From the NCBI GenBank assembly GCA_050178385.1, contig JBFXGD010000063.1, positions 1 through 17,637 of the forward strand: DNA of 17,637 bases, read 5' to 3'. A model generated the notes under the pieces. The model was not told where the DNA came from and did no database searches. It saw nothing but the letters and a program-made list of their open reading frames with translations. Source of the DNA: Calditrichaceae bacterium. Lineage in GTDB: Bacteria; Calditrichota; Calditrichia; Calditrichales; JBFXGD01. The position numbers and the translations under genes are program-made. Positions 1 through 17,291 of the stretch are shown here, in pieces; positions within the stretch are counted from its first letter, which is position 1; every line of letters starts with the position of its first letter.

Positions 1-387
1 CGTAAAACAGTGCGGGCAATCTTTAGTTGTCGGTGCCGGCGCGGGCTTCTCATCTTCTTTTTTCTTCATGCGATTCATCTGCTTCACCACCATAAATATG
101 GCAAAGGCGATGATAAGAAAATCCAGAATGGTATTGACAAAGACCCCATAGTTAATTGTCGCTGCTCCCGCTTCCTGCGCCGCGGCAAGTGTTTCGTATC
201 CCTTGCCTGATAAATCATAAAATAAATTCGTGAAATCAACATTCCCCATCAGCATACCTATCGGCGGCATGATAACATCTTTTACAAGTGAACTGACGAT
301 TTTTCCAAAAGCCCCACCAATAATGATACCGATCGCCATATCCATTACATTTCCGCGCATGGCAAATTCTTTGAATTCTTTAAACAT
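1..387 (-). CDS. mscL: Large-conductance mechanosensitive channel MscL (3' end outside window), with the start of a C-terminal CxxC Zn-ribbon extension
   Basis: Manual translation from ATG at 387: [44 protein letters not shown]...[52 protein letters not shown]. Canonical MscL N-terminus and TM1/TM2. RBS AAAGGAG at about 394-400. Confidence 0.97.
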
Positions 388-607
388 AAAGTTCTCCTTT
401 TAATAATGTGATTGTTTAATTTTGTCTTCTGATTACCGGCAGGTCTTTTCAAATGATATGCCGGCTTTTGTTTCATGATTAACTATTTCGTGTGAAATAT
501 TGTTTATAAACACTTTATGTCAAATCATAAACGATCTGTATATTTAAAATATTTGACAAAACCGCGGCACTTCACCCGCAAATATGGTTATATCGCCCGG
601 GATTTTA

Positions 608-817
608 TTATTGATTTCGCCTTTTCTTCTTTTTTTTATGGGACGGATGTTTCACACCGTCACCCTGAAACGGACTTTTTTCTTTCCCGGAATCAGACAG
701 TAAATTGGATTGCCATCTGAACAGATGACCACAATTTTCGCAAACGACAAACATACCGATCAGCGTATCCGGACTTATCGTTAATTTTCCCGAACATTTT
801 GGACAGATAATTTTCAT
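608..817 (-). CDS. Small Zn-ribbon protein (CxxC-x17-CxxC) with basic tail, about 69 aa
   Basis: MKIICPKCSGKLTISPDTLIGMFVVCENCGHLFRW...KKKKKRRNQ resembles the MJ0042-type zinc-ribbon pattern. ATG at 817 is preceded by GGTGA. The ORF track start at 856 is probably too far upstream. Confidence 0.7.
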   Translation of the reverse strand: MKIICPKCSGKLTISPDTLIGMFVVCENCGHLFRWQSNLLSDSGKEKSPFQGDGVKHPSHKKKKKRRNQ

Positions 818-839
818 AACTTCACCATACACCGGAAGC

Positions 840-855
840 ATCAAATTACCTGCCA
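840..855 (-). promoter_or_regulatory. Candidate sigma54 -24/-12 promoter for the Zn-ribbon gene
   Basis: Minus strand TGGCAGGTAATTTGAT versus consensus TGGCACGNNNNTTGCW: correct spacing, two mismatches including the -12 C to A. Lies just downstream of a sigma54 activator gene. Confidence 0.4.
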
Positions 856-998
856 TTTTTTTCGTCCATCCCGGATTTTTATCGTAAGACTAAAAATATC
901 AATTACTTGGAAGGATATATAATTCAAAACTATGATTACACTTTTTTAAAGATACCGGGGGATATTTCCATATTGAGGGTCTTTTGGCTCGGCAGATC

Positions 999-2363
999 TC
1001 AGTCAAGATTAAATTTTTCAAGCCGGTATCGAAAGGTGTCGCGTGACAACCCTAATAATCTGGCCGCCCGGCTTTTATTCCCCCCCGCTCTTTCCAAAGC
1101 CGACAAAATGAGCTGCTTTTCCACATTTTCCAAAGAAATCCCGTCCACAGGCACCGTCCATTTCCCATCTCCTTTATCACCATCTTTGTGATGCAGTACA
1201 AGATCAGATGATTCTATTCTGCCGGTTTCAATAAATATCATTGCTCTTTCAATCACATTGCTTAATTCACGTACATTACCAGGCCATTGATAGCCTATCA
1301 ACTTCTGTTCCGCTTCTTTGCTGAATCCGGTTACATGTTTTTTGAACTCAATATTAAAAATCTGTAAAAAATGATGAGCTATCAATATGACATCACGGTC
1401 AAGCTCTCTTAAGCCGGGCAGATTTATCGTAACCACTTTCAAACGATAGAGCAAATCTTCTCTAAACTCCCCTTTACCGATCAACTCATCAAGATTCCTG
1501 TTTGTCGCTGCAATCAGACGCACCTTCACATCCTGTTCAGCATTGCTTCCGAGTCTGCGAAATTTTCGCGTTTCAAGAAATGTCAGCAGTTTTGCCTGTA
1601 ATTTCAGAGGCAGTTCACCGATTTCATCAAGGAACAGCGTTCCGCCGTCCGCTTCTTCCAGCAGTCCCTTGCGACTCGCGACAGCCCCCGTAAATGCCCC
1701 CTTCTCATATCCGAACAGCTCCGATTCCAGCAATGTCTCGGGAATAGCCGCGCAATTTATTTCAACAAAGGGCGTTTTGGATTCCTGAGACGAATAATGA
1801 ATCACCTTGGCCACAAGGCTTTTCCCCGTACCGCTCTCGCCGAGAAGCAGAACCGTGGCTGCCGGTATTTGGGAAATTTTCCCAACCATCTGTCTGATTT
1901 TTTCAATAGGTTCTGATTCACCTAAAATACTTGCCGAAAGGAAATCCCCTTTTGCCGCAAGAAAACTTTCCAGCAATAATATTTCGTTTTTTTGCTGAGC
2001 GATTTGTTGTTTCTGAATTGCCGCTTCAGTGGTATCTTCCACCAGACAGAACAAAGGAACTTCAGGATCACCCGTCCGAAAAAAAGAGAGACTAAAATAC
2101 CGCTCTTCCCCATTCGCCAAAACCCGGTTCAGGTATTCGAGAGTAAAGCTTCCTCTTTTCACCGCCAGAATTTCCCGCAGCGTGTTTTCAAGACCAACCG
2201 TTTCCGGCACCAGATCCGTGATCCGTTTTTGTCCCGGCTTCTGGTTCCCCATACAATAATCTGTAAATCCGCTGCCCGAAGAAATTACCACCATCAGATC
2301 GGATAGCCAGGCAAAGCTGAATTTTTTGTATTCAAGGATATTTTCAAAAAAGGATTTATTCAT
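999..2363 (-). CDS. Sigma54-dependent enhancer-binding transcriptional regulator (PAS-like input, AAA+, Fis-type HTH)
   Basis: Walker A GESGTGKS, intact GAFTGA, Walker B LFLDEIGE, FREDLLYRL, WPGNVREL, and C-terminal HTH GNKSRAARLLGLSRDTFRYRL. The N-terminus lacks receiver motifs and ends in PAS-like VEDTTE followed by a coiled coil. Confidence 0.95.
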   Translation of the reverse strand: MNKSFFENILEYKKFSFAWLSDLMVVISSGSGFTDYCMGNQKPGQKRITDLVPETVGLENTLREILAVKRGSFTLEYLNRVLANGEERYFSLSFFRTGDPEVPLFCLVEDTTEAAIQKQQIAQQKNEILLLESFLAAKGDFLSASILGESEPIEKIRQMVGKISQIPAATVLLLGESGTGKSLVAKVIHYSSQESKTPFVEINCAAIPETLLESELFGYEKGAFTGAVASRKGLLEEADGGTLFLDEIGELPLKLQAKLLTFLETRKFRRLGSNAEQDVKVRLIAATNRNLDELIGKGEFREDLLYRLKVVTINLPGLRELDRDVILIAHHFLQIFNIEFKKHVTGFSKEAEQKLIGYQWPGNVRELSNVIERAMIFIETGRIESSDLVLHHKDGDKGDGKWTVPVDGISLENVEKQLILSALERAGGNKSRAARLLGLSRDTFRYRLEKFNLD

Positions 2364-2898
2364 ATTTTACATTTACCAATAATTCCTGGAGCTGCCAAAA
2401 GATATTTTCCACGTTTTCTCCGGTTTTGGCGCTTGTAAGATAAAATTTGTGTTTTCCCGAGGCGGCGATTGAATCCATAAGTTCAAATGATTTTGATTTT
2501 TCTCCGGTCAGATCATTCTTGTTTCCCGCCAGTAAGATCCGCGCGTCCGGATTAATTTCCCGGAAGAATCCGGCTATTTCCGGTATCTTTTCAATCGTCT
2601 CAGGTCTGGTCAGATCGCTCACGATCAGGGCCCCCGACGCGCCCGTATAATAATTTTTCAGCGCGGGTCCGGCCTTCCCGAAACCTTCAATATCCCAGAT
2701 CACAAAATGAAATTGAACCATTCTTCCGTCAGACACGCTTACCGGCGGCAGAATTTTTTGAGATACTTTTACCCCGATGGTTGAGAGATAGCTGTCATCA
2801 AAGATATTATCGACAAACCGTCTTACCAAACTGGTTTTGCCGACTCCAAACATACCCAGCAGACAAATTTTCTTTTTAAGAATTACCGCTTCGTTCAT
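2356..2898 (-). CDS. Rab-like Ras-superfamily small GTPase (prokaryotic Rup-like)
   Basis: G1 GMFGVGKTS, G2 YLSTIG, G3 WDIEG, G4 NKND, G5 TSAK, plus Rab-like YYTGASGALIVSDLT. Stand-alone, 180 aa. Overlaps the next gene by 8 bp. Confidence 0.93.
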   Translation of the reverse strand: MNEAVILKKKICLLGMFGVGKTSLVRRFVDNIFDDSYLSTIGVKVSQKILPPVSVSDGRMVQFHFVIWDIEGFGKAGPALKNYYTGASGALIVSDLTRPETIEKIPEIAGFFREINPDARILLAGNKNDLTGEKSKSFELMDSIAASGKHKFYLTSAKTGENVENIFWQLQELLVNVKYE

Positions 2899-2923
2899 TG
2901 TTGAGATTCAACCCTTAGGTCCG

Positions 2924-4699
2924 TTATTCTATTAAGAACGTGACTCTTCTGTTTAATTCATGCATCTCAGTGCCTGTATCCGATAAAATCGGCTCTTCTG
3001 CCCCTTTTGCGATTACGGTGATCTTCGCTTCCGGAAATCCATGGTTAATCAGATATCGCCGGACATTCTCCGCCCGCTTCATTGACAGATCGTAATTAAT
3101 TTTGTCGGATCCGGATGGATCCGCGTGGCCGATGACCGTAATTCTTGTAAAATTCGCGGTTTTGAGTTTGCCTTCAATCTCGTCAAGAAGATCTATATTT
3201 TTAGCTGTAATGTTCGTTGAACCTGAATCAAAGAGGATTCTCACCGATCGGATGAAATCCGCGGACAGATCTTCCCGATTCTTTACCTTCAGATTGTTTA
3301 TGACCACAGGAAATCGTGTTATCTGTGCGGCCGCGGAACCTATTAGTATTTTATTGTTCCCGGTGGCCGTTTCACCTTCTAAAAAAAGCCGGTTGCCGTC
3401 CACGATAAACCGGATGCCGCCCAGGTCATCTTCTAACTGCCCGGGATAAAGCGCTTTCATTCCAGACCATATTTTTTCCGGCTCAATATCCCGGTTCCTG
3501 ACATTAATATCATTGGATACCTCCTTGACACCGGCCTGCTTTATCATGAGGGACTCTATTTTTTCACGGTCACTCCAGTTCTCCGCCTCACCGGCCAGCG
3601 TGACATGCCGGTCGTTTATCTCAAACCGGATATTGCTCAGAAGCTCCGGATTCTTTTGGCGAAGTTCGTTCAGGCTGGCTTTTAATTCGCTCTCCCTAAA
3701 TTTTTGCGGAATAAAGAAAATCCCCGCGTAAACAATCAGCGCCAGCAGCAGAATGGTCAACAGATACATCAATCCTTTCGGACGCCGGTTCAAATCCTTT
3801 CCGGTACCATCACTTTGCCGTTTCCGGTTGTACTGTTGAAGGAACGATTCCAGATCCGACCGGACCCGGTTAAACGGTTCTGTATCACCCTTAAATTCAC
3901 GGAGAGATTTGAAATATTGTTTATGTAAGTTCTGCTCAAGCTGACGAAGATAATCTTTTAATTCTTTCGGCGGCACGCCCGATGTTACGACCGCAAGATA
4001 GGCATTTCGTCCGTTTTCCAGCAAAATCTGAAGATCGTCATACTGAATTTCACTCAGATCCCGTTCGCTGTTTTCACTAAAGGCCGTCTTCGCGAATTCA
4101 CGGATGGCCGACAGCATACCGCTGATCATATCCTCATCGCCGGAAGCGGAGGATGACCGGTCATGGACATGTGTAAGAAGAAGGCCTGATTCTTTGTGGA
4201 TATAAAATATTTCGTGAATGGTAAATGGAAGTGAATCGGCAAGAACCAGCGCGGCGCTTTCGACTCCGGTAATCCGCGCCTTTAGTTTTTTAAACATCAT
4301 CTCAAAGCTAAGGGCCCGGTCAACGCGCTCATTTACAGTTTTAGCAAGATTCTTCATGGCCTCGGCTATGGACTTCCGGATACTCTGGCCAATCACGGGA
4401 TAAAGAGCGTCAACAATATCTTCCCTCGCGACTTCTATTTGTTTCTTGATGGCTGTTCCCATTACAGGAGCCAGCGCTTCGGCTATCTCGTCTTTTGATT
4501 CGCTTATCTTTTGGGTCAGGAGTCCGGCGATAACAGGATCAAGTGTTTTGATCAGCCAGTTTTTATCGCGCCATTGAACCTGGAACGATTCAATACGGGA
4601 TTCAAGATCGGCTACGCTTTTCAGATTATCCGCCAGTAGAATCCTTCTGAGCTGATCAACGGGATCTTCGGAAGAAGTATACTTTTTCAGCTCAGCCAT
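2924..4699 (-). CDS. Single-pass membrane protein: cytoplasmic helical repeats and longin/roadblock-like domain, TM, two BON domains, OmpA-like peptidoglycan-binding domain
   Basis: C-terminal OmpA motifs ILFDSGS...VIGHADPSGSDKINYDLSMKRAENVRRYL...NRRVTF. BON-like VTLAGEA...GVKEVSNDINV and LFLEGET...VVINNLKV. TM at aa about 309-331. Cytoplasmic IFYIHKESGLLL...DMISGMLSAIREFAK. Confidence 0.88.
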   Translation of the reverse strand: MAELKKYTSSEDPVDQLRRILLADNLKSVADLESRIESFQVQWRDKNWLIKTLDPVIAGLLTQKISESKDEIAEALAPVMGTAIKKQIEVAREDIVDALYPVIGQSIRKSIAEAMKNLAKTVNERVDRALSFEMMFKKLKARITGVESAALVLADSLPFTIHEIFYIHKESGLLLTHVHDRSSSASGDEDMISGMLSAIREFAKTAFSENSERDLSEIQYDDLQILLENGRNAYLAVVTSGVPPKELKDYLRQLEQNLHKQYFKSLREFKGDTEPFNRVRSDLESFLQQYNRKRQSDGTGKDLNRRPKGLMYLLTILLLALIVYAGIFFIPQKFRESELKASLNELRQKNPELLSNIRFEINDRHVTLAGEAENWSDREKIESLMIKQAGVKEVSNDINVRNRDIEPEKIWSGMKALYPGQLEDDLGGIRFIVDGNRLFLEGETATGNNKILIGSAAAQITRFPVVINNLKVKNREDLSADFIRSVRILFDSGSTNITAKNIDLLDEIEGKLKTANFTRITVIGHADPSGSDKINYDLSMKRAENVRRYLINHGFPEAKITVIAKGAEEPILSDTGTEMHELNRRVTFLIE

Positions 4700-5102
4700 T
4701 TTCTACCGCTTCTTCTTTAGTAATGTCATGCTCATTGCCTTTCAGCTTACGCGCGACATCCGCTAAATAAGAACTGACTTCCTCCCTGTCTGTCTTTTCA
4801 CGTCTCAGGTGTTCGATTTTTTCTTCGATAAGCGATAACTTTTCATCAACCGTCCCGAGCAGCTCCGATCCTGATTTATGGATGGACTCTCTTAACTGAG
4901 TGAATTTTTCATTGTTTTTGTTTTCGGCCTGTTGGATCATTTCATTTATTGAAGCGGTCATCTCAGAAAAATTTGTTTTCAGCTCATTCAGCTTTTTCTC
5001 CAGCTTCGAAAATTCTTCCTGAAATTCCCGAAGCTGTTCGCCGAAGATAAGATGACGCACCTGTTCAATATCGCTGGACAACTTTTTTTGATCCCCGCTC
5101 AT
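4692..5102 (-). CDS. Coiled-coil hypothetical protein, first gene of the GTPase operon
   Basis: 136 aa, heptad-rich, N-terminal IEQVRHLIFGEQ. RBS GGGGGG upstream. Overlaps the OmpA-domain gene by 8 bp (ATGGCTGA). Confidence 0.85.
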   Translation of the reverse strand: MSGDQKKLSSDIEQVRHLIFGEQLREFQEEFSKLEKKLNELKTNFSEMTASINEMIQQAENKNNEKFTQLRESIHKSGSELLGTVDEKLSLIEEKIEHLRREKTDREEVSSYLADVARKLKGNEHDITKEEAVENG

Positions 5103-5508
5103 ACATTACCCCCCTGAAGGATGATTAACAGATTTTAGGATTGTCCGTAATCTATAATGATTATTTAAATCTTTTATATAATTATATTTTATGATCGCCT
5201 GTGGAGATATTGAGAGAGAATTCTGATAACCGGATTGACTTATACTCTTAATATATGCGGACAATATGAATTTGATATGATCTATCCCCCTTCAGATTCA
5301 CAAAGACTTCATCCTAAACGCTGTCAAAATGGATTTTATTCTTCCACTTCTGTTTTAAAAACCGAGCGCCGATGAAAAGACGTAATTAATATATAAAACA
5401 ATTCACAGCATTGAAAGAAATTTAATGTAATGGTAAGACAGCCAAAATTTTGCAACAGAGAGTTTCGTCTCGGGATAGTGATGGTCTTATTTAATTATGG
5501 ATAGAAAT

Positions 5509-5541
5509 AAAAAAACCTCCCGGAAAGATCATACCGGGAGG
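5509..5541 (-). terminator. Rho-independent terminator of dcp
   Basis: Minus strand CCTCCCGG-10 nt loop-CCGGGAGG followed by T7, about 20 bp after the stop codon. Confidence 0.85.
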
Positions 5542-5561
5542 CTCTTTAAAGATTATAAAAA

Positions 5562-7661
5562 CTAATTTAATCCGCGTCTTTTTAACAGAGGCTCAATTTT
5601 TGGTTCGGCGCCTCTGAATTTTACATAAAGCGTCATCGGATCATCCGATCCGCCCTTTGAAAGCACATTTTCTCTAAACGCCAGAGCGGTTTTCTGATCG
5701 AACAGCCCGTTCTCCTTAAATGCTTCGAATGCATCCGCATCCAGAACAGCAGCCCAGATATAACTGTAATAACCGGATGAATAACCGCCGGAGAAAATGT
5801 GACGGAAATAAGGGCTTTTGTATCTTGAGACTATTTCCGGTATCAATCCGATTTTGTTCATCGAATTATTTTCAAATTCTGCCGGGTCAAGCTCTTTAGC
5901 CTCGGTCAGAGTATGCCAGTCCATATCCAGGAAAGAAGCGGCAAGATATTCAACCGTGGCGAATCCCTGGTTGAAATGGCCTGAATTTTCCAACTTTTCG
6001 ATCAATTCATCAGGAATCGGTTCATTGGTTTCATAATGCCGCGCGTAGGATCTTAACACTTCAGGTTCCGAAGCCCAGTTTTCCATAATCTGTGAGGGAA
6101 GTTCAACGAAATCCCTCGGAACGGAGGTTCCGGAGATCGTATGATAGGTGCTGTTGGACAGAAGCCCGTGCAGAGCGTGACCAAATTCATGGAACAGAGT
6201 TTCAGCTTCATCAAAACTCAGCAAAGCGGGCTTATCCCCGGTTGGTTTGGAAAAATTGCAAACATTGGCTATAACCGGTGTGACGTCTTTTCCATCCTGA
6301 CGGGACTGCTTCCGGTACGCGTTCATCCAGGCGCCTCCGCGTTTGCTGGCTCTTGGAAAATAATCTGTGTATAAAATCCCAATATGAGAGCCATCCGCTT
6401 CTTTTACTTCAAACGCTTTGACATCCGGGTGATATACGGGAAGGTCCGCCCGTTCTTCAAAGGTAATTCCATAAAGATTTGTGGCGACCGCGAATGCCCC
6501 GTCTCTTACGTTTTCCAGTTTGAAATACGGTCTGAGAGCCGCGTCATCAAGATCATATCTGGCTTTTTTCACTTTTTCCGAATAATACCACCAGTCCCAC
6601 GCTTCCAGCTTAAAATTGTTGCCTTCGGCTTCAATCATCTCCTGCATATCTTTTGCTTCTTTTTTGGCGATAGGAAGCGCCGCGTCCCAGAGCTGATTTA
6701 GTAATTTATAAACACGATCCGGAGTTTTCGCCATATTTTCATCCAGGATAAAATCGGCGTGTGTTTTATATCCGAGAAGATTGGCTTTTTCTACTCTCAG
6801 CGCTGCCATTTTTGCAAGGATTTCTTTGTTGTCCAGTTCGTTTCCATTGTCTCCGCGATTGATATAACCTTTAAACATCTTTTCACGCAGATCTCTTTTT
6901 TCTGAATATTGCAAAAACGGGATTAAGCTCGGCTTATGAAGCGTAAAAACCCATTTTCCTTCATAGCCTCTTTCGGCTGCCGCTTCGGACGCGCCTTTGA
7001 CAACCGACTCCGGGAGCCCCGCGAGATCCTCTTTTTCATCGATCACCAACTCAAACGCGTTATCCTCTTTTAAAATGTTCTCGCCGAACTGCAGGGAATA
7101 CAGAGACAACTTTTCGTTTATTTCGCGGAATCTCGCCTGTTTTTCAGGATCCAGATTTGCCCCGCCGCGCACAAAACCCTTATAATATTTTTCAAGCAGC
7201 GCGGATTGTTCTCCCGACAATCCCAGTTCATCCTTCTTATCATAAACCTGTTTTACCCTCTCAAACAGCTTTGGATTCAGATTTATATCATCATTGTGAC
7301 CCGACAATAACGGCGTGACATCTTTAGCAATCTCCTGCAAATTGTCATTGGTATTTGCAGAAGTTAAGTTGTCGAAGACATCGCTTACTTTTATCAGTAA
7401 CGCGCCGCTCCGCTCCATTGCATCTATCGTATTCTCGAAGGTGGGGGCCTCCGTATTGCTGACAATCGCTTCTATCTCACGCTTCTGCTGTTTCATACCT
7501 TCTTTATAAGCAGGCATAAAATGCTCTTCTTTTATCTTGCTAAACGGCGGAACACCGAAAGGCGTATCATATTCGCTGAAAAATGGGTTGGATTCCTCCT
7601 TTGAGCATGACCAGAGCATTATTCCGACAGCAATAAATGCCAAAGTGAACATCTTCATCAT
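5562..7661 (-). CDS. dcp: M3 family metallopeptidase, peptidyl-dipeptidase Dcp (lipoprotein)
   Basis: TLFHEFGHALH zinc motif, RDFVELPSQIMENW, HIFSGGYSSGYYSY, GGAWM. Lipobox-like LWSC. Confidence 0.93.
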   Translation of the reverse strand: MMKMFTLAFIAVGIMLWSCSKEESNPFFSEYDTPFGVPPFSKIKEEHFMPAYKEGMKQQKREIEAIVSNTEAPTFENTIDAMERSGALLIKVSDVFDNLTSANTNDNLQEIAKDVTPLLSGHNDDINLNPKLFERVKQVYDKKDELGLSGEQSALLEKYYKGFVRGGANLDPEKQARFREINEKLSLYSLQFGENILKEDNAFELVIDEKEDLAGLPESVVKGASEAAAERGYEGKWVFTLHKPSLIPFLQYSEKRDLREKMFKGYINRGDNGNELDNKEILAKMAALRVEKANLLGYKTHADFILDENMAKTPDRVYKLLNQLWDAALPIAKKEAKDMQEMIEAEGNNFKLEAWDWWYYSEKVKKARYDLDDAALRPYFKLENVRDGAFAVATNLYGITFEERADLPVYHPDVKAFEVKEADGSHIGILYTDYFPRASKRGGAWMNAYRKQSRQDGKDVTPVIANVCNFSKPTGDKPALLSFDEAETLFHEFGHALHGLLSNSTYHTISGTSVPRDFVELPSQIMENWASEPEVLRSYARHYETNEPIPDELIEKLENSGHFNQGFATVEYLAASFLDMDWHTLTEAKELDPAEFENNSMNKIGLIPEIVSRYKSPYFRHIFSGGYSSGYYSYIWAAVLDADAFEAFKENGLFDQKTALAFRENVLSKGGSDDPMTLYVKFRGAEPKIEPLLKRRGLN

Positions 7662-7842
7662 CTTAATCCTTTCCGATTTATGAAAGAGTAAATTTCAAAC
7701 AAGATTCTAATATCCGAAATTTTTTAAAAAATACAATTTTAATTGAAACAAACGCTAAACAACGGAATAAGTTGCGTTTCAGACCGCTTAGATTCTATAA
7801 CGCTTTAATCAGGTTAAATTATTTTCAATGTTATTTTTGATC

Positions 7843-7871
7843 TTGACAATTCAAATGGAATTGACGAAAAT
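7843..7871 (+). promoter_or_regulatory. Possible sigma70 promoter for the SRPBCC gene
   Basis: TTGACA (7843-7848), 17 bp spacer, GAAAAT (7866-7871), about 30 bp upstream of RBS GGGGGAG and the ATG. Confidence 0.35.
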
Positions 7872-7903
7872 TTCAAGGGATTGAATTATTAGGGGGGAGT
7901 CCA

Positions 7904-8344
7904 ATGAAATTCAATTTTTTTATCACCATCAATAAAAGTCGCTATGAAGTCTGGAAGATTTTTGACAATCCGGATAATTTATCGAAATGGCAGCCTACTT
8001 TAATAAAATTTGAGCATCAGAGCGGTGATCCAGGAAAGCCCGGCGCGGTATCCATGCTGACCTATAAAGAAAAAGAAGAATTTATTATGCTTGAAACCAT
8101 CACATCCAGAAATGAACCCGAAGAATTTTCAGGCATTTATGAAAATCCGACAGCGCGGACTTCCATGAAAAACACATTCACCGCCATCAACGACAAAACG
8201 ACAAAATGGGATGTGGAAACGGAATTTACATTCAAAAATCCTGTTTCAAAAATACTTTCTCCATTGATGAAAGGCATGATCAGTAAACGCGTGACCGGAG
8301 ACATGAACCGGTTTAAAAAATTCGCCGAGAGTGTAACCGGTTAA
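7904..8344 (+). CDS. SRPBCC (polyketide cyclase/START-like) family protein
   Basis: ITINKSRYEVWKIFDNPDNLSKWQP N-terminal signature and C-terminal helix DMNRFKKFAE. Strong RBS. Confidence 0.85.
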   Translation: MKFNFFITINKSRYEVWKIFDNPDNLSKWQPTLIKFEHQSGDPGKPGAVSMLTYKEKEEFIMLETITSRNEPEEFSGIYENPTARTSMKNTFTAINDKTTKWDVETEFTFKNPVSKILSPLMKGMISKRVTGDMNRFKKFAESVTG

Positions 8345-8433
8345 GTTGAGCCATCATTTTCAGAAACTATGAATTATATTTACCACGATAACCGTTTCAA
8401 TCTGGAAATCAATCACTTGACGGAGAGATACCT

Positions 8434-8964
8434 ATGAAAAAGCTGTTTTCATTTATCATAGCCGCATTGTTTATTTTCCCTTGTGTCATTCATGCCCAGA
8501 CGGAATTGTCAGGGCACCTTAAACCGCTCGAACCTTTTGTGGGCAAAACCTGGAAGGGTGTATTCGCCAACCCGGATAAGGACAAAATGACTCAGGATGT
8601 CTCCCGCTGGGAGAGAGCCCTGAATGGCCAGGCAATCCGAATTCTGCATTCGGTAAATGACGGTGAATACGGCGGTGAATCGATTGTAATGTGGGATCCG
8701 GATAAGGAAAGCCTTATTTTCTATTATTTCACCACCGCCGGCTTTTTCACAAACGGCACCATAAAATTTGAAAACGGACAATTTATAAGTCATGAATACG
8801 TAACCGGTGAAAAGAGCGGAATTACAGAGGTTATGGGCGCCGGAAAAATGCTTCCCGACGGCCGCTACCTCAGCAAATCGAAGTACCTTCAAAACGGCAA
8901 ATGGGTGGAGGGGCATGAGATATATTACGTGGAGGATCCGGAAGCCAAAGTCATCATGAAATAA
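8434..8964 (+). CDS. Secreted hypothetical protein, probable beta-barrel
   Basis: Signal peptide MKKLFSFIIAALFIFPCVIHA. LKPLEPFVGKTWKG followed by alternating beta-strands. RBS GGAGAG. Confidence 0.8.
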   Translation: MKKLFSFIIAALFIFPCVIHAQTELSGHLKPLEPFVGKTWKGVFANPDKDKMTQDVSRWERALNGQAIRILHSVNDGEYGGESIVMWDPDKESLIFYYFTTAGFFTNGTIKFENGQFISHEYVTGEKSGITEVMGAGKMLPDGRYLSKSKYLQNGKWVEGHEIYYVEDPEAKVIMK

Positions 8965-9142
8965 GATCTCTTTCCGGAATATCTTGTTTAATGGGGATAT
9001 ACAATGCTGATTTGTACCTGTTAGGTCTCATAAATTCATCAATTCCATTGATGGAAATAACGGATCGTGTCAAACTTCTTTCCGGGTGTGAGTTTTCTAA
9101 TTGTGTTCCATGTTTATATTAAAGTTCTCAGGGGAGGCAGAT

Positions 9143-10804
9143 ATGCGGCGGGGTTCACTGACTTTCATCCTTGTTTTGTTTTCTATTCAATTATATTCTC
9201 AGACAAATCCAAATGACAGCGGCGGTATTCTTTCACCTGAACAGGCCGCTTACGATGTTACTTTTTATGATCTTGACATGCGGATTGATCCCGCGGACAG
9301 CAGCATTCAGGGTATTCTCACCATGTATGCGAACATAACGATTGCAACTGAACACATCGTATTGAATCTCGATACTCTGCTCACAGTTGAAAAAATCCTG
9401 AACAAGTCGGGCAATGAACATCGCTTTTCGCGGGACCGGGGTAACATCTGGATCGAGCCGGGTAGAACTTTACAGCCGGGTGAATTCACTGTTTTTAAGA
9501 TTCATTATCACGGAAAACCGCGATCCGGACAAAAAGGAAAATTTAACAAGTTTATCTGGGCTGAAACCGCAGGCGGTGAACCCTGGGTTGGTGTTTCATG
9601 CGAATATAGCGGCGCCGATATTTGGTGGCCGTGTAAAGATCATCCTTCCGATGAACCGGATTCCATGGCATTACATTTTACCGTCCCTGAAAATCTGCTT
9701 GCCGTGAGCAACGGACGCCTCATATCTTCTAAATCCAACCAGGACGGTACCCGTACTTTTGACTGGTTTGTTTCTTCACCTATAAGCAACTATTCTGTTT
9801 CGGTTTACGTCGCCCCTTATGTGGAAATTCAGGAAAAATTCAAATCCGTTTCGGGTGATGTAATCCCGGTTTCATTCTGGGCATTGCCGGAGAATGAATC
9901 AAAAGCAAAGGAATTCCTGCCGGGATTTTTGGAACATTTAGCATTTTTTGAGAAACTCCTTGGGCCTTATCCGTTCCGGTCCGATAAATACGGCATCACG
10001 GAAGCGCCCTACCTGGGAATGGAACATCAGACCGTCATCGCGTACGGAGGCAACTATGATTTCAGATCGATGGGAGATGTGGACTGGGGATTTGACGCCC
10101 TTCATCAGCATGAATTAGCGCATGAGTGGTTCGCCAATCTGGTTTCACCATCCGACTGGTCTGATTTATGGCTTAGCGAGGGACTGGCTTCCTATATGCA
10201 GATCATATACGCCGAACATAAATTAGGTAAAACAAAAGCAGATGAGCTGATGGAGATCATTCGGTCATATATCACCAATAAACAGCCGGTTGTTCTGCCG
10301 CGCGGAGCGATTTTTAGCGAAGCGTATGACATGGACGTGTACTTTAAAGGCGCCTCTATGCTGCACACCCTGCGCCATCTAATCGGCGATCAAAAATTTA
10401 ATCTGCTGCTTAGACGCTGGGCCTATCCTGATCCTGAAGATGAAAAAAAGGTCAATGGAGAAGCATGCCGGTTTGTCAGCACGCCGGATTTTGAAAAACT
10501 CGCGGAAAAAATCTCCGGGATGAAACTTGACTGGTTTTTTGGAGTTTATCTGTATCAAAAAGATTTACCGGTACTCAACATAAATAAAACCGACAATTTT
10601 TTAAATCTAACATGGGCAATTACGGATCATTCAAATTTCCCGATGCCGGTGGATATAAAAATTGACGGAAAAATTCAGCGGGTTGAATTGCCCGGAGGCC
10701 ATGCTTCCGTTCCCTTAACCGCTGAATCAAAATGGCAAATTGATCCCGGAAAATGGATACTTTTTGCGACAGGGGACACTCCTTCGCCGGGAGTATTAAA
10801 ATAG
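9143..10804 (+). CDS. M1 family aminopeptidase, exported
   Basis: GMEH exopeptidase motif, HELAH-x18-E (WLSEG), YFKGASMLH. ATG 9143 follows GGGGAGG and starts a signal peptide (ORF track start 9101). Confidence 0.92.
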   Translation: MRRGSLTFILVLFSIQLYSQTNPNDSGGILSPEQAAYDVTFYDLDMRIDPADSSIQGILTMYANITIATEHIVLNLDTLLTVEKILNKSGNEHRFSRDRGNIWIEPGRTLQPGEFTVFKIHYHGKPRSGQKGKFNKFIWAETAGGEPWVGVSCEYSGADIWWPCKDHPSDEPDSMALHFTVPENLLAVSNGRLISSKSNQDGTRTFDWFVSSPISNYSVSVYVAPYVEIQEKFKSVSGDVIPVSFWALPENESKAKEFLPGFLEHLAFFEKLLGPYPFRSDKYGITEAPYLGMEHQTVIAYGGNYDFRSMGDVDWGFDALHQHELAHEWFANLVSPSDWSDLWLSEGLASYMQIIYAEHKLGKTKADELMEIIRSYITNKQPVVLPRGAIFSEAYDMDVYFKGASMLHTLRHLIGDQKFNLLLRRWAYPDPEDEKKVNGEACRFVSTPDFEKLAEKISGMKLDWFFGVYLYQKDLPVLNINKTDNFLNLTWAITDHSNFPMPVDIKIDGKIQRVELPGGHASVPLTAESKWQIDPGKWILFATGDTPSPGVLK

Positions 10805-10995
10805 ATATAATTTTTATGAATCAATGAGAATTTGACGATTTTTTTAACATCGTCGTTATTTTCGGCAGGCTCCGGATTCGATAACAGGCTTATACCATCC
10901 GGCCTTTTTCACGAGGCAACGATGCCGCGGGATTCCGGAACGAAATCCGGCTAAAAAAAATTCAATAAACGTATCAACCCGATTGAGGAGAATTG

Positions 10996-11904
10996 ATGAA
11001 CTTTCTAAAGAGCGGAATCATATTCTTTTTCCTGACCACTACTTTCTTTTTAGCGGGATGCGGATCTTCCGAAAAGAGTTCCTATACAAATGGAATCGAT
11101 GAATGGCATAAAAAACGCGTTTCTTCTTTAACCCGCGAAGACAACTGGCTGAGTCTCGCGGGTTTGTTCTGGCTTAATGAAGGGCAAAACCGGTTCGGCA
11201 GCGATACATCCAACGATATCGTGTTCCCGGAGAAAGCGCCGGGGTTTATCGGTTCGCTTATTCTGGAAGACAATCATGTTTTGGCAAAAATTAATGCGGA
11301 TGTAAACGTAACCGCGGGTGAAAATCAGGTGACATCCATGATCCTGCGAAGTGATGCCGACGGGGATCCCACTATACTGACATCAGGGTCACTGAGCTGG
11401 TTCATCATCAAACGCGGGAATAAGTATGGTATCCGCCTTCGCGACAGGGAACATCCCAATTTAAAACACTTTAAAGGAATAAACAGATATGCCGTAAAAG
11501 AATCCTGGCGTGTTCAGGCAAAATTGGAACCCTATAATCCGCAAAAAACAATTGCCGTTCCCACCATTTTGGGGACCGTGGACAGCTCTTTTTCTCCCGG
11601 CGCGCTGGTTTTTGAAATTGCCGGGGAAACTTACAGGCTGGATCCGATTGCCGACCCGGGGGATGATAAATACTTCGTGATTTTCGCGGATGACACCAAC
11701 GGGGATGAAACCTACGGCGCTGGACGCTTCCTGTATGTGGACCGGCCGGGCGCGGATGGTATCACTTATATCGACTTTAATAAAGCCTACAATCCCCCCT
11801 GCGCCTTCACCGAATTCGCGACATGCCCCCTACCGCCTTTTCAGAACAGGATGCCGGTTAAAGTGACCGCCGGTGAAAAAAATTACGATAGTGAGAATCT
11901 TTAA
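10996..11904 (+). CDS. DUF1684 domain lipoprotein
   Basis: WLSLAGLFWL, FADDTNGDETYGAGRFL, DFNKAYNPPCAFTEFATCPLPPFQN, AGEK. Lipobox LAGC. RBS GAGGAG. Confidence 0.92.
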   Translation: MNFLKSGIIFFFLTTTFFLAGCGSSEKSSYTNGIDEWHKKRVSSLTREDNWLSLAGLFWLNEGQNRFGSDTSNDIVFPEKAPGFIGSLILEDNHVLAKINADVNVTAGENQVTSMILRSDADGDPTILTSGSLSWFIIKRGNKYGIRLRDREHPNLKHFKGINRYAVKESWRVQAKLEPYNPQKTIAVPTILGTVDSSFSPGALVFEIAGETYRLDPIADPGDDKYFVIFADDTNGDETYGAGRFLYVDRPGADGITYIDFNKAYNPPCAFTEFATCPLPPFQNRMPVKVTAGEKNYDSENL

Positions 11905-11943
11905 CCAATTAAAGTGGTTTTTTTAATATCAGGAGGAAAATTA

Positions 11944-12498
11944 ATGATGTCAGAAATGGCCGCAAGAGACCGCATGTCCAATACGGCCTTTAAAATGATG
12001 ACGCTGGCATTTAAAATTGCTGATTTCTTCTCCCCGCGGACGGGCAAACTTGGCGATTTCGGCATTAAAGAAGGATTCACCGTCATTGATTACGGCTGCG
12101 GTCCGGGTCGGTACATACCTGAAGCATCAAATCTGGCCGGGAGTTCAGGAAAAGTTTACGCGGTGGACATCCATGAACTGGCCGTTAACTCAGTCCGCGA
12201 ATTAATCAAAAAAAGAAAACTGCAAAATGTGGAAACCATTCATATTTCCGGGTACCGGACTCCATTGCCGGATAACACCGCCCATATCATCTATGCCCTG
12301 GACATGTTTCACGGAATCAACCAGCCGGACCAGCTTCAAAAAGAATGGCGGCGTTTATTAAAATCTGACGGACAACTTATCCTGGAGGATGGTCATCAAC
12401 CAAGAAAAAGAACAAAGAAAAAAATCGCTGACGCGGGATTTTTTATTATTCAAACTGAAAAAAAGGAACACCTGATCTGCAAACCGAAAATGAAATGA
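11944..12498 (+). CDS. Class I SAM-dependent methyltransferase
   Basis: VIDYGCGPG motif I, VYAVDIH, RLLKSDGQL. ATG 11944 follows AGGAGG. Confidence 0.9.
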   Translation: MMSEMAARDRMSNTAFKMMTLAFKIADFFSPRTGKLGDFGIKEGFTVIDYGCGPGRYIPEASNLAGSSGKVYAVDIHELAVNSVRELIKKRKLQNVETIHISGYRTPLPDNTAHIIYALDMFHGINQPDQLQKEWRRLLKSDGQLILEDGHQPRKRTKKKIADAGFFIIQTEKKEHLICKPKMK

Positions 12499-12506
12499 TT
12501 CTTCTG

Positions 12507-12932
12507 TTATTTTACTCTGTAGTAAGTCACCGTTTCTTCACCAAAAAATGACGGCCGGTGAATTGGCTGATCCTTATTTATCTCTCCCGGTTCCACATCA
12601 AGACGGAACATGGCGTTGTTTTTATGTTCAATGATTCCATAGAGGGCTTTCCCCGCGAGCGGACCTTCATTAAATCCGCTTAAATCTATCGTGACCGGAC
12701 AAGTATCGAAATCAATTTTATATTCTATTTCAAATGTTTGTGTCATGTTTTTCGATTTTAATTTCCATTCCGCCCGGTTATCTTCCATAAAAACAAAGGT
12801 CTGTTTTATCCCCATTTTATCTACCCCGGACCACTCTCCGATTAAATACCCTCTGTTTTCTTTCCGGCAACCAGCGAAAATTATCAACAGCAGAATCAAT
12901 ATTCCGGATATGAATACATTTTTGTTTGTCAT
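12507..12932 (-). CDS. Hypothetical lipoprotein, lipocalin-like/TIGR03067-like beta domain
   Basis: Lipobox FAGC. LIGEW...YKIDFDTCPVTIDL...GKALYGI...RPSFF resembles the TIGR03067-type pattern. RBS GGTGGGG. Confidence 0.75.
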   Translation of the reverse strand: MTNKNVFISGILILLLIIFAGCRKENRGYLIGEWSGVDKMGIKQTFVFMEDNRAEWKLKSKNMTQTFEIEYKIDFDTCPVTIDLSGFNEGPLAGKALYGIIEHKNNAMFRLDVEPGEINKDQPIHRPSFFGEETVTYYRVK

Positions 12933-13159
12933 CAATTATCCCCACCCTATTAAATTTATGCTAAATCAAAATACAATTCATAGAATTTAAATCAAAGAAA
13001 AAATCCTGATATTATATTCCCGGCGCTAACGGGACTTTTCTGTCAAACTGCCTCTTAATTTTCCTGACACCTTTTGTCAGCACAAATATATTTTTATTTT
13101 CTTAAACCAAATCGTATTCTTTACGTATCTATATGCGGTTACTAACTTATGGGGATAAG

Positions 13160-14257
13160 ATGTCCGCGCAAAAATCAAATGGCAGCAGTGAACCAAAGAT
13201 TTTTGATACGATCTTTAACGACGTACGAAAAGGCGATTTACGGCGCACCATGCGGCGTGATTTAAAAGATTTAAAAGCTTTCTATATCAACGATGAGCGA
13301 AAAAAACGGCTGGAGAAAATGGGCCGATTCAAACGCTGGTTTTTCATAACCATTTGGCTGTTTAAAAGCCTTTTTTTTAAACTCACTCCGGCCAGGCGTC
13401 TCCTGTTTATCATCGCCTTCATTTTTTTGTTCACCGCAAATTCCGGAAACATGCAAACCGGCTCCAATGGTCTTCTTTTTGCCGGCCTGATATTCCTGTT
13501 TATTCTCATGCTGGAGCTCAAAGACAAGCTGCTGGCCAAGGATGAACTTGAGACCGGACGATCCGTTCAGTACGCGCTGATGCCAGAGCGTTCGATTAAC
13601 ATACAGGGTTGGGAGCTCTACCTCTTCTCACGGCCGGCAAATGAAGTGGGCGGTGATTTGATCGACTTTATCCCTTTGAGGGAAAATCGGCATGGTGTGG
13701 TTCTTGGCGATGTTTCCGGCAAAGGACTCGGCGCCGCGCTTTTTATGGTCAGGCTGCAGGCAGTCATCAGAGCGATCGCTCCCGATTATGAATCGCTTGC
13801 GAAATTCGGAAAAAAAATAAATGAGATTTTTTACCGGGACCGGATGAATAATAAATTCGCTTCTGTTGTTTATTGCGAAATTCAATCCGGTTCAAACCGG
13901 CTGAACATGCTAAACGCCGGTCATATGCCCCCGATTATTCTTAAAGACGGCCGGATCGAAGAACTCGCCAAGGGACAGCCCGCGCTTGGTATCATGCCGG
14001 ATATAGATTATAACGAGACCATTCTTGAACTCCAAAAAGGACATTCCCTGTTAATTTATTCCGACGGTGTCACCGAGGCTCGAAATCCGGAGGGAGAATT
14101 TTATACTGAACAAAGGCTGTTCAAAATTCTTACTTCAATGACCGGTCTTTCGGCTAAAGATATTGGTGAAAGACTCACATCTGAAATTGACCGTTTTGTC
14201 GGTGACGCGCCGGCAAATGACGATTTGTCCCTGATTATCTTAAAACGGACGGAGTAA
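13160..14257 (+). CDS. Membrane-anchored PP2C-type (SpoIIE/RsbU family) Ser/Thr phosphatase
   Basis: EVGGDLID, LGDVSGKG, NAGH, YSDGVTEA and DDLS motifs, with N-terminal hydrophobic helices. ATG 13160 follows GGGGA (ORF track start 13133). Confidence 0.92.
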   Translation: MSAQKSNGSSEPKIFDTIFNDVRKGDLRRTMRRDLKDLKAFYINDERKKRLEKMGRFKRWFFITIWLFKSLFFKLTPARRLLFIIAFIFLFTANSGNMQTGSNGLLFAGLIFLFILMLELKDKLLAKDELETGRSVQYALMPERSINIQGWELYLFSRPANEVGGDLIDFIPLRENRHGVVLGDVSGKGLGAALFMVRLQAVIRAIAPDYESLAKFGKKINEIFYRDRMNNKFASVVYCEIQSGSNRLNMLNAGHMPPIILKDGRIEELAKGQPALGIMPDIDYNETILELQKGHSLLIYSDGVTEARNPEGEFYTEQRLFKILTSMTGLSAKDIGERLTSEIDRFVGDAPANDDLSLIILKRTE

Positions 14258-14348
14258 TTCCGCGTTCATTCTTTTTGTTTTCTTAAAATCGATTAATGCT
14301 TATCTTATATCCGGAATCAGTCTGAAATTTAAATCCGGAGAATTGATC

Positions 14349-15437
14349 ATGAAAAAATATATGATGTTTTTCTTTATTCTGATTATTGTCTCTGTCTCAC
14401 ATCCCATTTTCGGTCAGGAAGCGGACAGCGGTCTTGACAAGGTGATCAAAGAGCTTAAACAGAACAATGAAAACCTTCAGCACCGTCTTGACGCCATCGA
14501 AAAATCGATCGATGATATCCAGTGGTTTAATAAAGTGGGTGATGTGGCATTTATTGATAAACAGTACATGACGGGTCCGCCGCTGGCGCACGAAAAAAAC
14601 CCGACGGCTCAGGGCGCCGGGAATCCGGTGAAATTCTGGTCCTATATATTTATTCCCAAAGACATCGATCCCGCGAAAAAATATCCGCTGATCATCTTTC
14701 CCCATGGCGGTGTGCATGCCGATTTCACAACTTATTATACGCATATCGTCAGAGAACTGATCGCCCAGCAGTACATTGTCATCGCGGCAGAGTACCGCGG
14801 CAGCACCGGTTACGGAAAGAGCTTTTATGAAAAAATCGATTACGGCGGTCTCGAAGTTGAAGATGTAAATGCCAGCCGTGATTTTATGCTTGAAAATTAC
14901 GATATTGTCGATAAAAACCGGGTGGGGATCATCGGCTGGAGCCATGGCGGATTGATCGCTCTCCATAATATCTTTGATCATCCCGAGAATTATAAGGTAG
15001 CCTTTGCCGGTGTGCCGGTCAGCGATCTGGTCGCGCGGATGGGTTATAAAGATCAGGAATACCGGGATCTCTATTCTGCCGAATATCATATCGGCAAAAC
15101 CGCCGATGAGAATGTGAATGAATACCGTCGCCGTTCCCCCGCCTGGAACGCGCACAAGCTCAAAACGCCCCTGCTTATTCACACCAACACCAATGACGCC
15201 GATGTCAATGTTCTGGAAGTCGAACATCTGATTAAATCACTCAAAGCCGAGGGCAAGAAATTTGAATACGAGATCTTTCAGGATATACCGGGCGGTCACT
15301 CATTTGACCGTATGGATACAAAAAAAGCCCGTGAGATACGAGTAAAAATCTATAAATTTATCGGACAATATCTGACACCGCCGAGACTGATCGATTCTGT
15401 CAAGGAACTGGAAAAAGCCGCGTACCGGTTTAATTAA
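14349..15437 (+). CDS. S9 (prolyl oligopeptidase-like) alpha/beta-hydrolase peptidase, exported
   Basis: PHGGVH, EYRGSTGYG, nucleophile GWSHGG, NDADV (Asp), GGHSF (His). Signal peptide present. Confidence 0.92.
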   Translation: MKKYMMFFFILIIVSVSHPIFGQEADSGLDKVIKELKQNNENLQHRLDAIEKSIDDIQWFNKVGDVAFIDKQYMTGPPLAHEKNPTAQGAGNPVKFWSYIFIPKDIDPAKKYPLIIFPHGGVHADFTTYYTHIVRELIAQQYIVIAAEYRGSTGYGKSFYEKIDYGGLEVEDVNASRDFMLENYDIVDKNRVGIIGWSHGGLIALHNIFDHPENYKVAFAGVPVSDLVARMGYKDQEYRDLYSAEYHIGKTADENVNEYRRRSPAWNAHKLKTPLLIHTNTNDADVNVLEVEHLIKSLKAEGKKFEYEIFQDIPGGHSFDRMDTKKAREIRVKIYKFIGQYLTPPRLIDSVKELEKAAYRFN

Positions 15438-15552
15438 TTTACCTAACCCGGATTAGATGGCCCTACACCTTCGTTGAAACTCAATAGATTATGGCGGCCA
15501 AAGAGTATAAATTTCAATTTTGAGTAAACTTAATATTCATACGGGGGAAATC

Positions 15553-15939
15553 ATGAACAAAGATTCCAATGCAGAGCAAATATGGGATGAAGAAATAAGA
15601 CAAAAATTTATAAAAGAAGCCCGGGATGAGCAAAACCGGTATTCTCTTTATTATAAAACGCGTTTCTGGTCGATGATGATCGCTCAGGGCACAGGAGCGA
15701 TGCTGGTAATCGCAGGGGCGGTACTGTCACTGCTGGGTTTCAGCGGAACGATTGAATGGCTGGAGCATGCTCACAACAATATGGAGCGGTTTTATAACGC
15801 CGGCCCCGGTTTCACCTTTATTATTCTCGGTATCCTTACCTTATGGCTCTCCAGACCACGCCCCCATCACGAACCTCATGCTCCCGAAGGCCGCCACCGT
15901 ACAGGAAAACTTTTTGATGTGGATGATTTGCTGGAGTAG
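15553..15939 (+). CDS. Hypothetical membrane protein with two TM helices
   Basis: Hydrophobic segments GAMLVIAGAVLSLLG and GPGFTFIILGILTLW. ATG 15553 follows GGGGGA. Confidence 0.75.
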   Translation: MNKDSNAEQIWDEEIRQKFIKEARDEQNRYSLYYKTRFWSMMIAQGTGAMLVIAGAVLSLLGFSGTIEWLEHAHNNMERFYNAGPGFTFIILGILTLWLSRPRPHHEPHAPEGRHRTGKLFDVDDLLE

Positions 15940-15983
15940 GAAGTAGGAAGGTTAAGATAAAAGAAAAAAGAGTAAGAACGGGC

Positions 15984-16020
15984 AGTTTCCCCCTTACCAA
16001 AGGGGGACTAAGGGGGTTGT
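15984..16020 (+). repeat. Palindromic repeat family 1, copy A (C5TT-N4-AAG5 hairpin plus ACTAAGGGGGTTGT tail)
   Basis: AGTTTCCCCCTTACCAAAGGGGGACTAAGGGGGTTGT; 32/37 identical to the reverse complement of 17395-17430. Confidence 0.85.
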
Positions 16021-16030
16021 TTTCGGAGTT

Positions 16031-16237
16031 CTACAAAGATGCGACATCGTCAGGATTTTTATCAAATTAACCATATTTATCATTATTTCGTGGATTTTCA
16101 ATGCACCCATCAATCCAAATCCCGGAGGGATGAAATTTTTGTAGAAAACCAGCCACCCTGAAATCCCGCGACCCGAAGGGGTCAAACCATTACCGCGGGA
16201 ATCCCTATGCTACAAAAATGCGACACCTTCGGTGTCG
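16031..16237. repeat. Palindromic repeat family 2 (GTAG-tagged REP/REPIN-like cluster)
   Basis: ATCCC-GGA-GGGAT...ATTTTTGTAG (16119-16144) faces CTACAAAAAT-G-CGACACC-TTC-GGTGTCG (16210-16237). Internal hairpin GACCC-GAAG-GGGTC (16170-16183). Truncated extra copy CTACAAAGATGCGACA (16031-16046). Confidence 0.7.
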
Positions 16238-16300
16238 GGCTTTCATGTCCAATGGAATAAATATTTTTCATTATATTCAACATTATCGACATGAATATTT

Positions 16301-16423
16301 CTCTTTCCCGTCACTTTTTGACCTGCCCCATCACTAAATGACCCCTTCCCGTAACAAATTGATTCTTTCCCGTAAAGTTTTACCTCTTCCCGTTACTTTT
16401 TGACCCGTCCCGTCACCCATTAA
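16301..16423. repeat. Degenerate 20-21 bp tandem array, six units, consensus approximately CYYTTCCCGTHACTTWTTGA
   Basis: CCC(G/A)T cores start at 16307, 16327, 16348, 16369, 16389 and 16409, with a seventh core at 16444. Confidence 0.8.
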
Positions 16424-16448
16424 TACAGATTTTCCTTACTTTTCCCGT

Positions 16449-16481
16449 AAAAAAAATGCCCCCCGCTAATCGCGGGGAGCA
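16449..16481 (-). terminator. Rho-independent terminator of the 249-aa gene
   Basis: Minus strand TGCTCCCCGC-GATTA-GCGGGGGGCA followed by T8, about 20 bp after the stop codon. Confidence 0.88.
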
Positions 16482-16500
16482 GAATATCTATCTTATCCTG

Positions 16501-17250
16501 TTAACCTTCCACCGGCACCGATTCCTGGTCTGATTTCCGATTTTTATTATAGCGTTTTGCATATTGACTCACATATCCCTTAAAACGCTGATCGTCCCGC
16601 CAGAAAACATACTGACCGCATTCACGGATATCGTCCATGGCTTCTTTTAAATATGTATAAGCCTTATCGCGTGTCACCCGGGTTTCGTTATTGTCCACGC
16701 GATCTGTGGCCGCCAGGGATAGAAGCTCCGCCATTTCATCGGATGTGGCTGCCGCCGTATCCAGCAGGGTTAAATCAAAACTGATTTTGGTTAGCGGCTC
16801 GCTGTTGGCTTTGCCCAGTTCAGCAAGGTCATTTAAATCCTGGATCATATCGGCATGACTGTTGCCCTCGGCAATCTTACTCACACGGCTAGCCAGCTCC
16901 GGTAGTTTACGATAGGCGAAGTGAAAATCATGAAGAAGCTGGTCACGAAGATCGTAGGCAGCGGGTGATTTTTCTTGCCAAAGTCTTTCCGCTTCTTCCC
17001 GGTTAAAACGATCCGTAAACCACAGGGATTCAGCCTGACGAGTTGCCCCGGTGCGGGTGGGGAGATCTTCAACCAGAGTCCAGTCCAGACCGGCCGCGAT
17101 GAGTTTTTCCTTATCAGCCTGACACCATTGATACGTGTTTTCCGCCTCCTGCAAATAGACATCCATGGGCATGTTTGGAGATTTGGTGACTTCATCGGGA
17201 ATCGCTTCGATTTCCGTCTGTTTTGCCGCAAAATCACTGGCATTTGACAT
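16501..17250 (-). CDS. Uncharacterised acidic, predicted all-helical protein (249 aa)
   Basis: Long ORF with RBS GGAGGAA before ATG 17250 (MSNASDF...) and its own terminator. No recognisable catalytic motif. Basic C-terminal patch YAKRYNKNRK. Confidence 0.88.
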   Translation of the reverse strand: MSNASDFAAKQTEIEAIPDEVTKSPNMPMDVYLQEAENTYQWCQADKEKLIAAGLDWTLVEDLPTRTGATRQAESLWFTDRFNREEAERLWQEKSPAAYDLRDQLLHDFHFAYRKLPELASRVSKIAEGNSHADMIQDLNDLAELGKANSEPLTKISFDLTLLDTAAATSDEMAELLSLAATDRVDNNETRVTRDKAYTYLKEAMDDIRECGQYVFWRDDQRFKGYVSQYAKRYNKNRKSDQESVPVEG

Positions 17251-17291
17251 AACAATTTCCTCCAATTTCGTTAATGGTTTGTTTTGTAAAG

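Follow-up and report, generated by a model that had tools for sequence, protein, structure and literature searches.

A predicted longin-fold domain in a wall-anchored receptor encoded next to a Rup-type Ras-like GTPase in a Calditrichaceae bacterium

A four-gene operon of a Calditrichaceae bacterium (assembly GCA_050178385.1, contig JBFXGD010000063.1) encodes a membrane receptor (P0001) of which residues 160-299 are predicted to adopt a longin fold and to bind the small Ras-like GTPase (P0002) encoded right behind it. We consider it likely that this domain is a docking and regulatory platform, coupling the wall-anchored receptor to the Rup GTPase, which would itself control a sigma-54-dependent activator headed by a PAS domain (P0003). 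The stretch of DNA that was analysed, called the window below, comprises positions 1-17,637 of the forward strand of this contig; as seen from its open reading frames (ORFs) and from Pfam, the operon consists of four close-packed genes that all lie on the minus strand and encode, in this order, a coiled-coil protein, the receptor, the Ras-like GTPase and the PAS-headed sigma-54 activator.

Fold and spread of the receptor domain

A first-pass annotation of the window, made from the sequence, had read a longin- or roadblock-like topology (two strands, a helix, three strands, then helices) into receptor residues of about 159-288, which correspond to window positions 3836-4225 on the minus strand. 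We modelled receptor residues 1-305 with AlphaFold2 from an alignment of 70 rows, and every one of the named elements is found in the resulting model (mean predicted local distance difference test, pLDDT, of 79): strands at residues 160-168 and 174-179, a helix at 189-209, strands at 216-220, 223-229 and 233-240, and helices at 247-267 and 274-299. The domain thus reaches from residue 160 to about residue 299, 11 residues beyond the annotated end. Between residues 160 and 299, the pLDDT is 91-97 in most blocks of 10 residues, with dips to 70-81 at residues 181-220 and 291-300. The order beta-beta-alpha-beta-beta-beta-alpha-alpha of the model is that of the longin fold.

A Foldseek search of the PDB, which the annotation had proposed as a check, returned 32 matches with an expectation value (E) of at most 0.001. 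Among the matches listed, almost every one is a Roadblock or longin protein, including the C-terminal domain of RagA, LAMTOR subunits, Bet5, sigma-adaptins, zeta-COP, MglB, MglC, Mon1-Ccz1 and Sec22b, the last with a template modelling score of 0.73 relative to the target. The domain as a whole superposes on solved longin domains with scores well above those of other folds. Receptor residues 160-299 are therefore, on the model, predicted to form a longin-fold domain. The longin-like part of the annotated interpretation is supported in this way, whereas a Roadblock sequence match is not found, the Roadblock/LC7 family (PF03259) giving no match to the domain at E<=1 in Pfam scans of the receptor and of each family member. 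The same PF03259 model finds another gene of the same genome (E 1.3e-12), a canonical Roadblock/LC7 gene at G000:C3:8398-8667 (plus strand, locus L082) that presumably encodes an MglB-type partner of some other GTPase.

Other sequence searches gave little. Neither Pfam nor NCBIfam holds a credible family for receptor residues 1-300, and none of the longin-type Pfam families (Longin PF13774, Intu_longin_1 PF19031, Fuz_longin_1 PF19036 and others) matches the receptor of the window at E<=1. A phmmer search of the PDB returned four weak hits and no longin-domain protein, the LAMTOR2-like one covering residues 4-58, outside the domain. As leads only, the nearest clusters in the ESM Atlas are unnamed archaeal proteins (scores 0.91-0.93), and an Asgard 'Roadblock/LAMTOR2' cluster stands at rank 15 (score 0.85), with Fuz_longin_1 on 22% of its members.

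Since the 146-residue domain segment alone recovers thousands of clusters (3707 protein clusters at E<=0.001 and 1716 at E<=1e-10, counted as representatives at 50% identity), the domain pattern is not due to chance. The names given to these relatives at source are of the type 'hypothetical protein' or 'OmpA family protein'; neither longin nor Roadblock occurs among them. When contigs were taken from one genome per species, a relative was encoded in 582 of 599 candidate stretches. In the phylum of the window the domain occurs in 32 of 86 genomes (22 of the 53 of high quality), usually once, and the genome of the window itself has a single copy. The C-terminal halves of the relatives differ, carrying OmpA with or without BON, SH3 (PF08239) or DUF4115. 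Short forms of about 270-300 residues, such as P0338, P0346, P0347 and P0351, consist of the helical region and the longin domain without a periplasmic part; they are found in complete Flavobacteriia genomes such as those of Lacinutrix and Polaribacter, and some are labelled 'cell envelope biogenesis protein OmpA' though no OmpA domain is recorded in them. Five long proteins (P0115, P0195, P0221, P0224 and P0234; 1231-2171 residues) combine two or three copies of this longin-type domain with CARDB, and four of the five also with DUF5915.

Gene linkage and predicted receptor-GTPase complex

Gene order was compared in the best 80 of the 582 stretches, which come from Calditrichia, Chloroflexota, Cyanobacteria, Acidobacteriota and others. 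Of these 80 related loci, 72 carry a GTPase homologue, and in 60 it lies directly downstream of the receptor gene, on the same strand (55 within 300 nt, plus 5 in which an over-long ORF call runs over the receptor end). In ten loci, all of a Chloroflexus type with another gene order, it is found upstream on the same strand: there (L013, L015, L025, L027-L030, L032, L033 and L036) the GTPase gene precedes the genes for the coiled-coil protein and the receptor. In another two it lies further off or on the opposite strand, and five of the eight loci without a GTPase end at a contig edge, with at most 225 bases left. The coiled-coil homologue stands immediately before the receptor gene in 66 of the 80 loci and somewhere in the locus in 68. 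The gene that follows the GTPase matches P0003 over its first 140-180 residues only, the part that holds the PAS domain, as is expected of interchangeable effectors that are read by one GTPase; the 15 downstream genes that were scanned carry histidine kinase, adenylate cyclase, GGDEF, HD-GYP, SpoIIE phosphatase or sigma-54 AAA+ outputs.

Roadblock and longin platforms are common regulators of Rab, Rag and Arf GTPases. We predicted a complex of two copies of receptor residues 145-300 with the GTPase, each chain being given its own alignment. The complex scored 0.80 (0.80, 0.81 and 0.80 in three runs), while the best of three controls scored 0.01; at least 92% of the contacts were common to the runs, and the partner pLDDT was at least 81. 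In the calibration of the tool, 116 of 157 solved complexes reached the mark, as did 2 of 215 mismatched pairs; these counts are only a rough guide here given the separate alignments and the three chains. On the receptor side, the predicted contacts are made by the turn between beta1 and beta2 (residues 170-174), helix alpha-1 (188-206) and a loop (270-274), together with helix 191-206 of the second copy; on the GTPase side, they comprise residues 5-10, 30-47 (switch I and strand 2), 64-68 (strand 3) and 78-88 (switch II).

These predicted contacts coincide with the best-conserved residues of the family. Of the 18 receptor positions with at least 90% conservation, nine lie among the 25 interface residues of the 156 modelled (hypergeometric p 3e-4). 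Conservation averages 0.70 within the interface and 0.45 outside it (Mann-Whitney p 1.7e-5), and G172, G194, M195, A198, I199 and F202 are 100% conserved among 64 sequences. The complex prediction supports, but does not establish, binding between the longin domain and the GTPase.

Features of the operon and its surroundings

The genes of the operon and the parts of their products are as follows, all on the minus strand:

4692..5102, minus strand: gene 1, coiled-coil protein P0004 (136 residues), from ORF and translation; its stop overlaps the receptor start by 8 bases
2924..4699, minus strand: gene 2, receptor P0001 (591 residues), with an N-terminal helical region, the longin domain, one transmembrane helix, BON, a BON-like stretch and OmpA
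4229..4699, minus strand: receptor residues 1-157, long helices (13-44, 46-67 and 69-128 in the AlphaFold2 model; pLDDT 56-66 over 91-140)
3803..4222, minus strand: receptor residues 160-299, longin-fold domain (AlphaFold2 model)
3707..3775, minus strand: receptor residues 309-331, sole transmembrane helix (Kyte-Doolittle)
3494..3694, minus strand: receptor residues 336-402, BON domain, periplasmic (PF04972, E 1.1e-11)
3236..3493, minus strand: receptor residues 403-488, periplasmic stretch, possibly a second BON-like unit judging by its sequence pattern; no Pfam match
2948..3235, minus strand: receptor residues 489-584, OmpA-like peptidoglycan-binding domain (PF00691, E 3e-20)
2356..2898, minus strand: gene 3, GTPase P0002 (180 residues), Ras superfamily, Group 1 Rup type (PF00071, E 1e-26); begins 25 bases past the receptor gene
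999..2363, minus strand: gene 4, sigma-54-dependent activator P0003 (454 residues); its first 8 bases overlap the end of the GTPase gene
2031-2363, minus strand: P0003 residues 1-111, PAS domain
1920-2030, minus strand: P0003 residues 112-148, signalling helix
P0003 residues 146-313, AAA+, and residues 410-451, helix-turn-helix

That the domain is fused to a peptidoglycan-binding membrane protein, as annotated, was confirmed by the OmpA match and by the one transmembrane stretch of the receptor, its only hydrophobic stretch (residues 307-334), Kyte-Doolittle values above 1.6 being reached solely by windows that begin at residues 307-316. Considering that basic residues stand just before this single stretch and that BON and OmpA follow it, the N-terminal 300 residues or so should be cytoplasmic and the wall-binding BON/OmpA part periplasmic. 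The OmpA region also has many OmpA, Pal and MotB matches in NCBIfam that score below the cut-offs, and P0004 has weak Pfam matches of coiled-coil type only.

In the N-terminal helical region, residues 53-120 (window 4340-4543, minus strand) read as three proline-punctuated tandem repeats, 22-23 residues long, that all start with a conserved Leu-x-Pro-Val motif. Across the alignment of 70 sequences, the conservation of this region is highest in these repeats, P101 being invariant and L76, P78, D97, A98 and G104 at least 90% conserved; the model draws them as a single long helix at low confidence (pLDDT 56-66). Such amphipathic repeats could lie on the membrane surface or bind the coiled-coil partner.

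The neighbour had been annotated as a Rab-like GTPase; P0002 is a GTPase of the Ras superfamily and of the Rup type, not a Rab. Its P-loop, T40, D69, NKxD and SAK motifs are conserved. The switch-II glutamine is missing: F73 stands right after DxxG, and glutamine occupies this position in only 1 of 48 aligned GTPases.

After the operon, a zinc-ribbon protein and the mechanosensitive channel MscL are encoded on the same minus strand, at window positions 1-387 and 608-856. A sigma-54-like site with two mismatches precedes the zinc-ribbon gene (841-855, minus strand); we took it as a chance match because GA replaces GC at -12. The window also encodes a SpoIIE/PP2C phosphatase of 374 residues (13133-14257, plus strand), with no family on its N-terminal 180 residues; PP2C is an output type of the Rup cassette in other genomes, and this gene lies 8 kb off on the opposite strand. 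Four ORFs of 139-254 residues (8434-8964, plus; 12507-12935, minus; 15520-15939, plus; 16501-17265, minus) have no Pfam family at E<=0.001.

Role of the domain and relation to known systems

In the sequence of events that we propose, which way the regulation runs, what the signal is and which genes are targeted are all inferred. The receptor would cross the inner membrane once, held to the cell wall by its periplasmic BON and OmpA domains, while its cytoplasmic longin domains, probably dimeric, would bind the GTPase via switch I, the interswitch strands and switch II. A cue from the envelope may then alter the longin platform and, through it, the nucleotide state or the release of the GTPase, and the loaded GTPase would act on the sigma-54 activator of the downstream gene, at its PAS head, so that transcription is turned on. 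By analogy with the longin guanine nucleotide exchange factors (GEFs) Mon1-Ccz1, TRAPP and DENN, we favour a GEF-like action of the domain, because several longin assemblies are GEFs and because the cassette has another candidate for a GTPase-activating protein (GAP). A bolder proposal, possible but to our minds doubtful, is that these proteins are a true bacterial longin family of transmembrane receptor-GEFs, in which a receptor sensing the wall or the envelope loads a Ras-like GTPase that switches interchangeable PAS-headed effectors. If so, they would be a bacterial counterpart of receptor-to-Ras signalling or of signalling from G-protein-coupled receptors to G proteins, and the pairing of longins with GTPases would not be an archaeal or eukaryotic invention.

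Within the docking reading, the domain might rather act as MglB does, as a GAP or co-GAP that turns the GTPase off at the membrane by repositioning its switch regions, without being an exchange factor; we think this rather unlikely. The predicted interface brings none of the domain's conserved Arg, Gln or Asn residues close to the nucleotide. The analogy is of no help in deciding, since GAP as well as GEF activity has been reported for MglB (available text of PMC11016934). Moreover, a catalytic glutamine acting in trans has been assigned to the N-terminus of the output protein: the accessible part of the catalogue of Rup systems by Wuichet and Sogaard-Andersen (2014, Genome Biol Evol 7:57; PMC4316618) describes there a region with an invariant glutamine, proposed as a possible trans-acting GAP residue. 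Among 79 sequences, Q119 and Q123 of the output protein are 97% and 99% conserved. Both are modelled on the long helix that starts right after the D-x-T-E junction of the PAS core and may, given this position, not be catalytic; they could equally well be residues of a coiled coil or signal helix.

The longin-like SRX domain holds SR-beta-GTP. In the same manner, the domain of the receptor could passively anchor the GTPase to the membrane, or bind it as an effector would, keeping it at the envelope in one nucleotide state without any catalysis; we judge this unlikely. The interface motifs are strongly conserved across phyla, but this would fit anchoring equally well, so that little speaks against such a role, which is the less specific reading. 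Lastly, a small-molecule sensor like PAS, GAF or profilin, making no contact with the GTPase, is very improbable, even though the longin fold is an alpha/beta sandwich related to those of GAF and PAS and one PAS-GAF photosensory module appears at Foldseek rank 44 (5lly_B, E 1.3e-3).

Several observations weigh against the domain being a longin platform that docks and regulates the GTPase. Its sequence kinship to longins is not significant: a profile built from a domain-only alignment (A4) has Bet5 as its best PDB hit, at E 0.15, Bet5/TRAPPC1 accounting for three of the six hits (E 0.15-1.6), and Intu_longin_1 matches only 2 of 64 family members in the per-member Pfam scan (best E 0.034). In three loci (L017, L020 and L024) the fetched flanks contain no GTPase, although they are ample. 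Complexes of like kind have been solved (MglA-MglB, Mon1-Ccz1-Ypt7 and Rag-Ragulator), so the score of the predicted complex may mirror likeness to these instead of binding of the predicted pair. The overlap of the contacts with conserved residues is not fully independent, as the same alignments were fed to the predictor, and the interface residues G194, M195, A198, I199 and F202 may partly be core residues. No P-loop residue (15-23) is among the predicted GTPase contacts. Nor does the longin domain place a conserved residue of catalytic type at the nucleotide, R200 (87.5% conserved) not being among the contacts; nothing in the complex therefore favours a GEF over a GAP or over plain docking. 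As to target genes, the sigma-54 promoter consensus (up to two mismatches) has 11 matches in the window, with 12.1 expected, and none stands out. No Rup interaction has been characterised experimentally according to the accessible text of PMC4316618, and our search, whose coverage lacked most subscription journals, turned up no subsequent paper naming the domain's fold or testing a Rup system.

The cassette itself is already known, as the neighbourhood of Group 1 Rup GTPases; it is the assignment of a longin fold to its receptor domain and the docking model that appear not to be in print. In the available part of PMC4316618, Group 1 consists of a coiled-coil protein, a protein with a conserved domain, a transmembrane segment and OmpA, a Rup GTPase without the G3 glutamine, and an output protein. 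The window has all four features: the coiled-coil protein, the receptor with its domain, transmembrane helix and OmpA, the GTPase lacking the glutamine, and the glutamine in the N-terminal part of the output protein. Where the same text calls the receptor domain one of "unknown function", without a fold or a role, the domain of the window has a longin fold in our model and a predicted GTPase interface. It also gives diguanylate cyclases/phosphodiesterases or histidine kinases as typical outputs, while the output here is a sigma-54 activator, a kind that may stand in its table S2. What Rup systems gain is a testable hypothesis on which protein contacts the GTPase and by which residues, that is, a mechanism and not a new system. 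A preprint from the Aravind lab (10.64898/2026.10.19.760177) reports in general terms that profilin-longin-like domains accompany GTPases across life; its accessible text does not mention the receptor protein.

The matches of the domain to MglB and other Roadblock/LC7 proteins (PF03259) span only residues 158-268, without the two C-terminal helices. MglB, which acts with MglA, and the actinobacterial conservon protein CvnB, which acts with CvnD, are small soluble proteins, whereas this domain is built into a receptor. We also compared it with the longins of eukaryotes and Asgard archaea, namely VAMP7, Sec22, Ykt6, Bet5, sedlin and synbindin of TRAPP, the sigma and mu adaptins, Mon1-Ccz1, CPLANE, SRX and the Lokiarchaeal Roadblock-Longin protein 8yqg. 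In contrast to these, it is bacterial, has no significant sequence similarity to them, is placed behind helical repeats and ahead of a membrane helix and wall-binding domains, and has as its partner a GTPase of the Rup kind instead of a Rab, Arf or Rag. In archaea, Roadblock proteins are described as abundant, in bacteria as sporadic, and an archaeal origin is presumed for the Roadblock/longin families (available text of PMC10933270); a large, unannotated bacterial family of longin topology, tied both to a Ras-like GTPase and to an anchor in the cell wall, bears on the origin of longin-GTPase modules.
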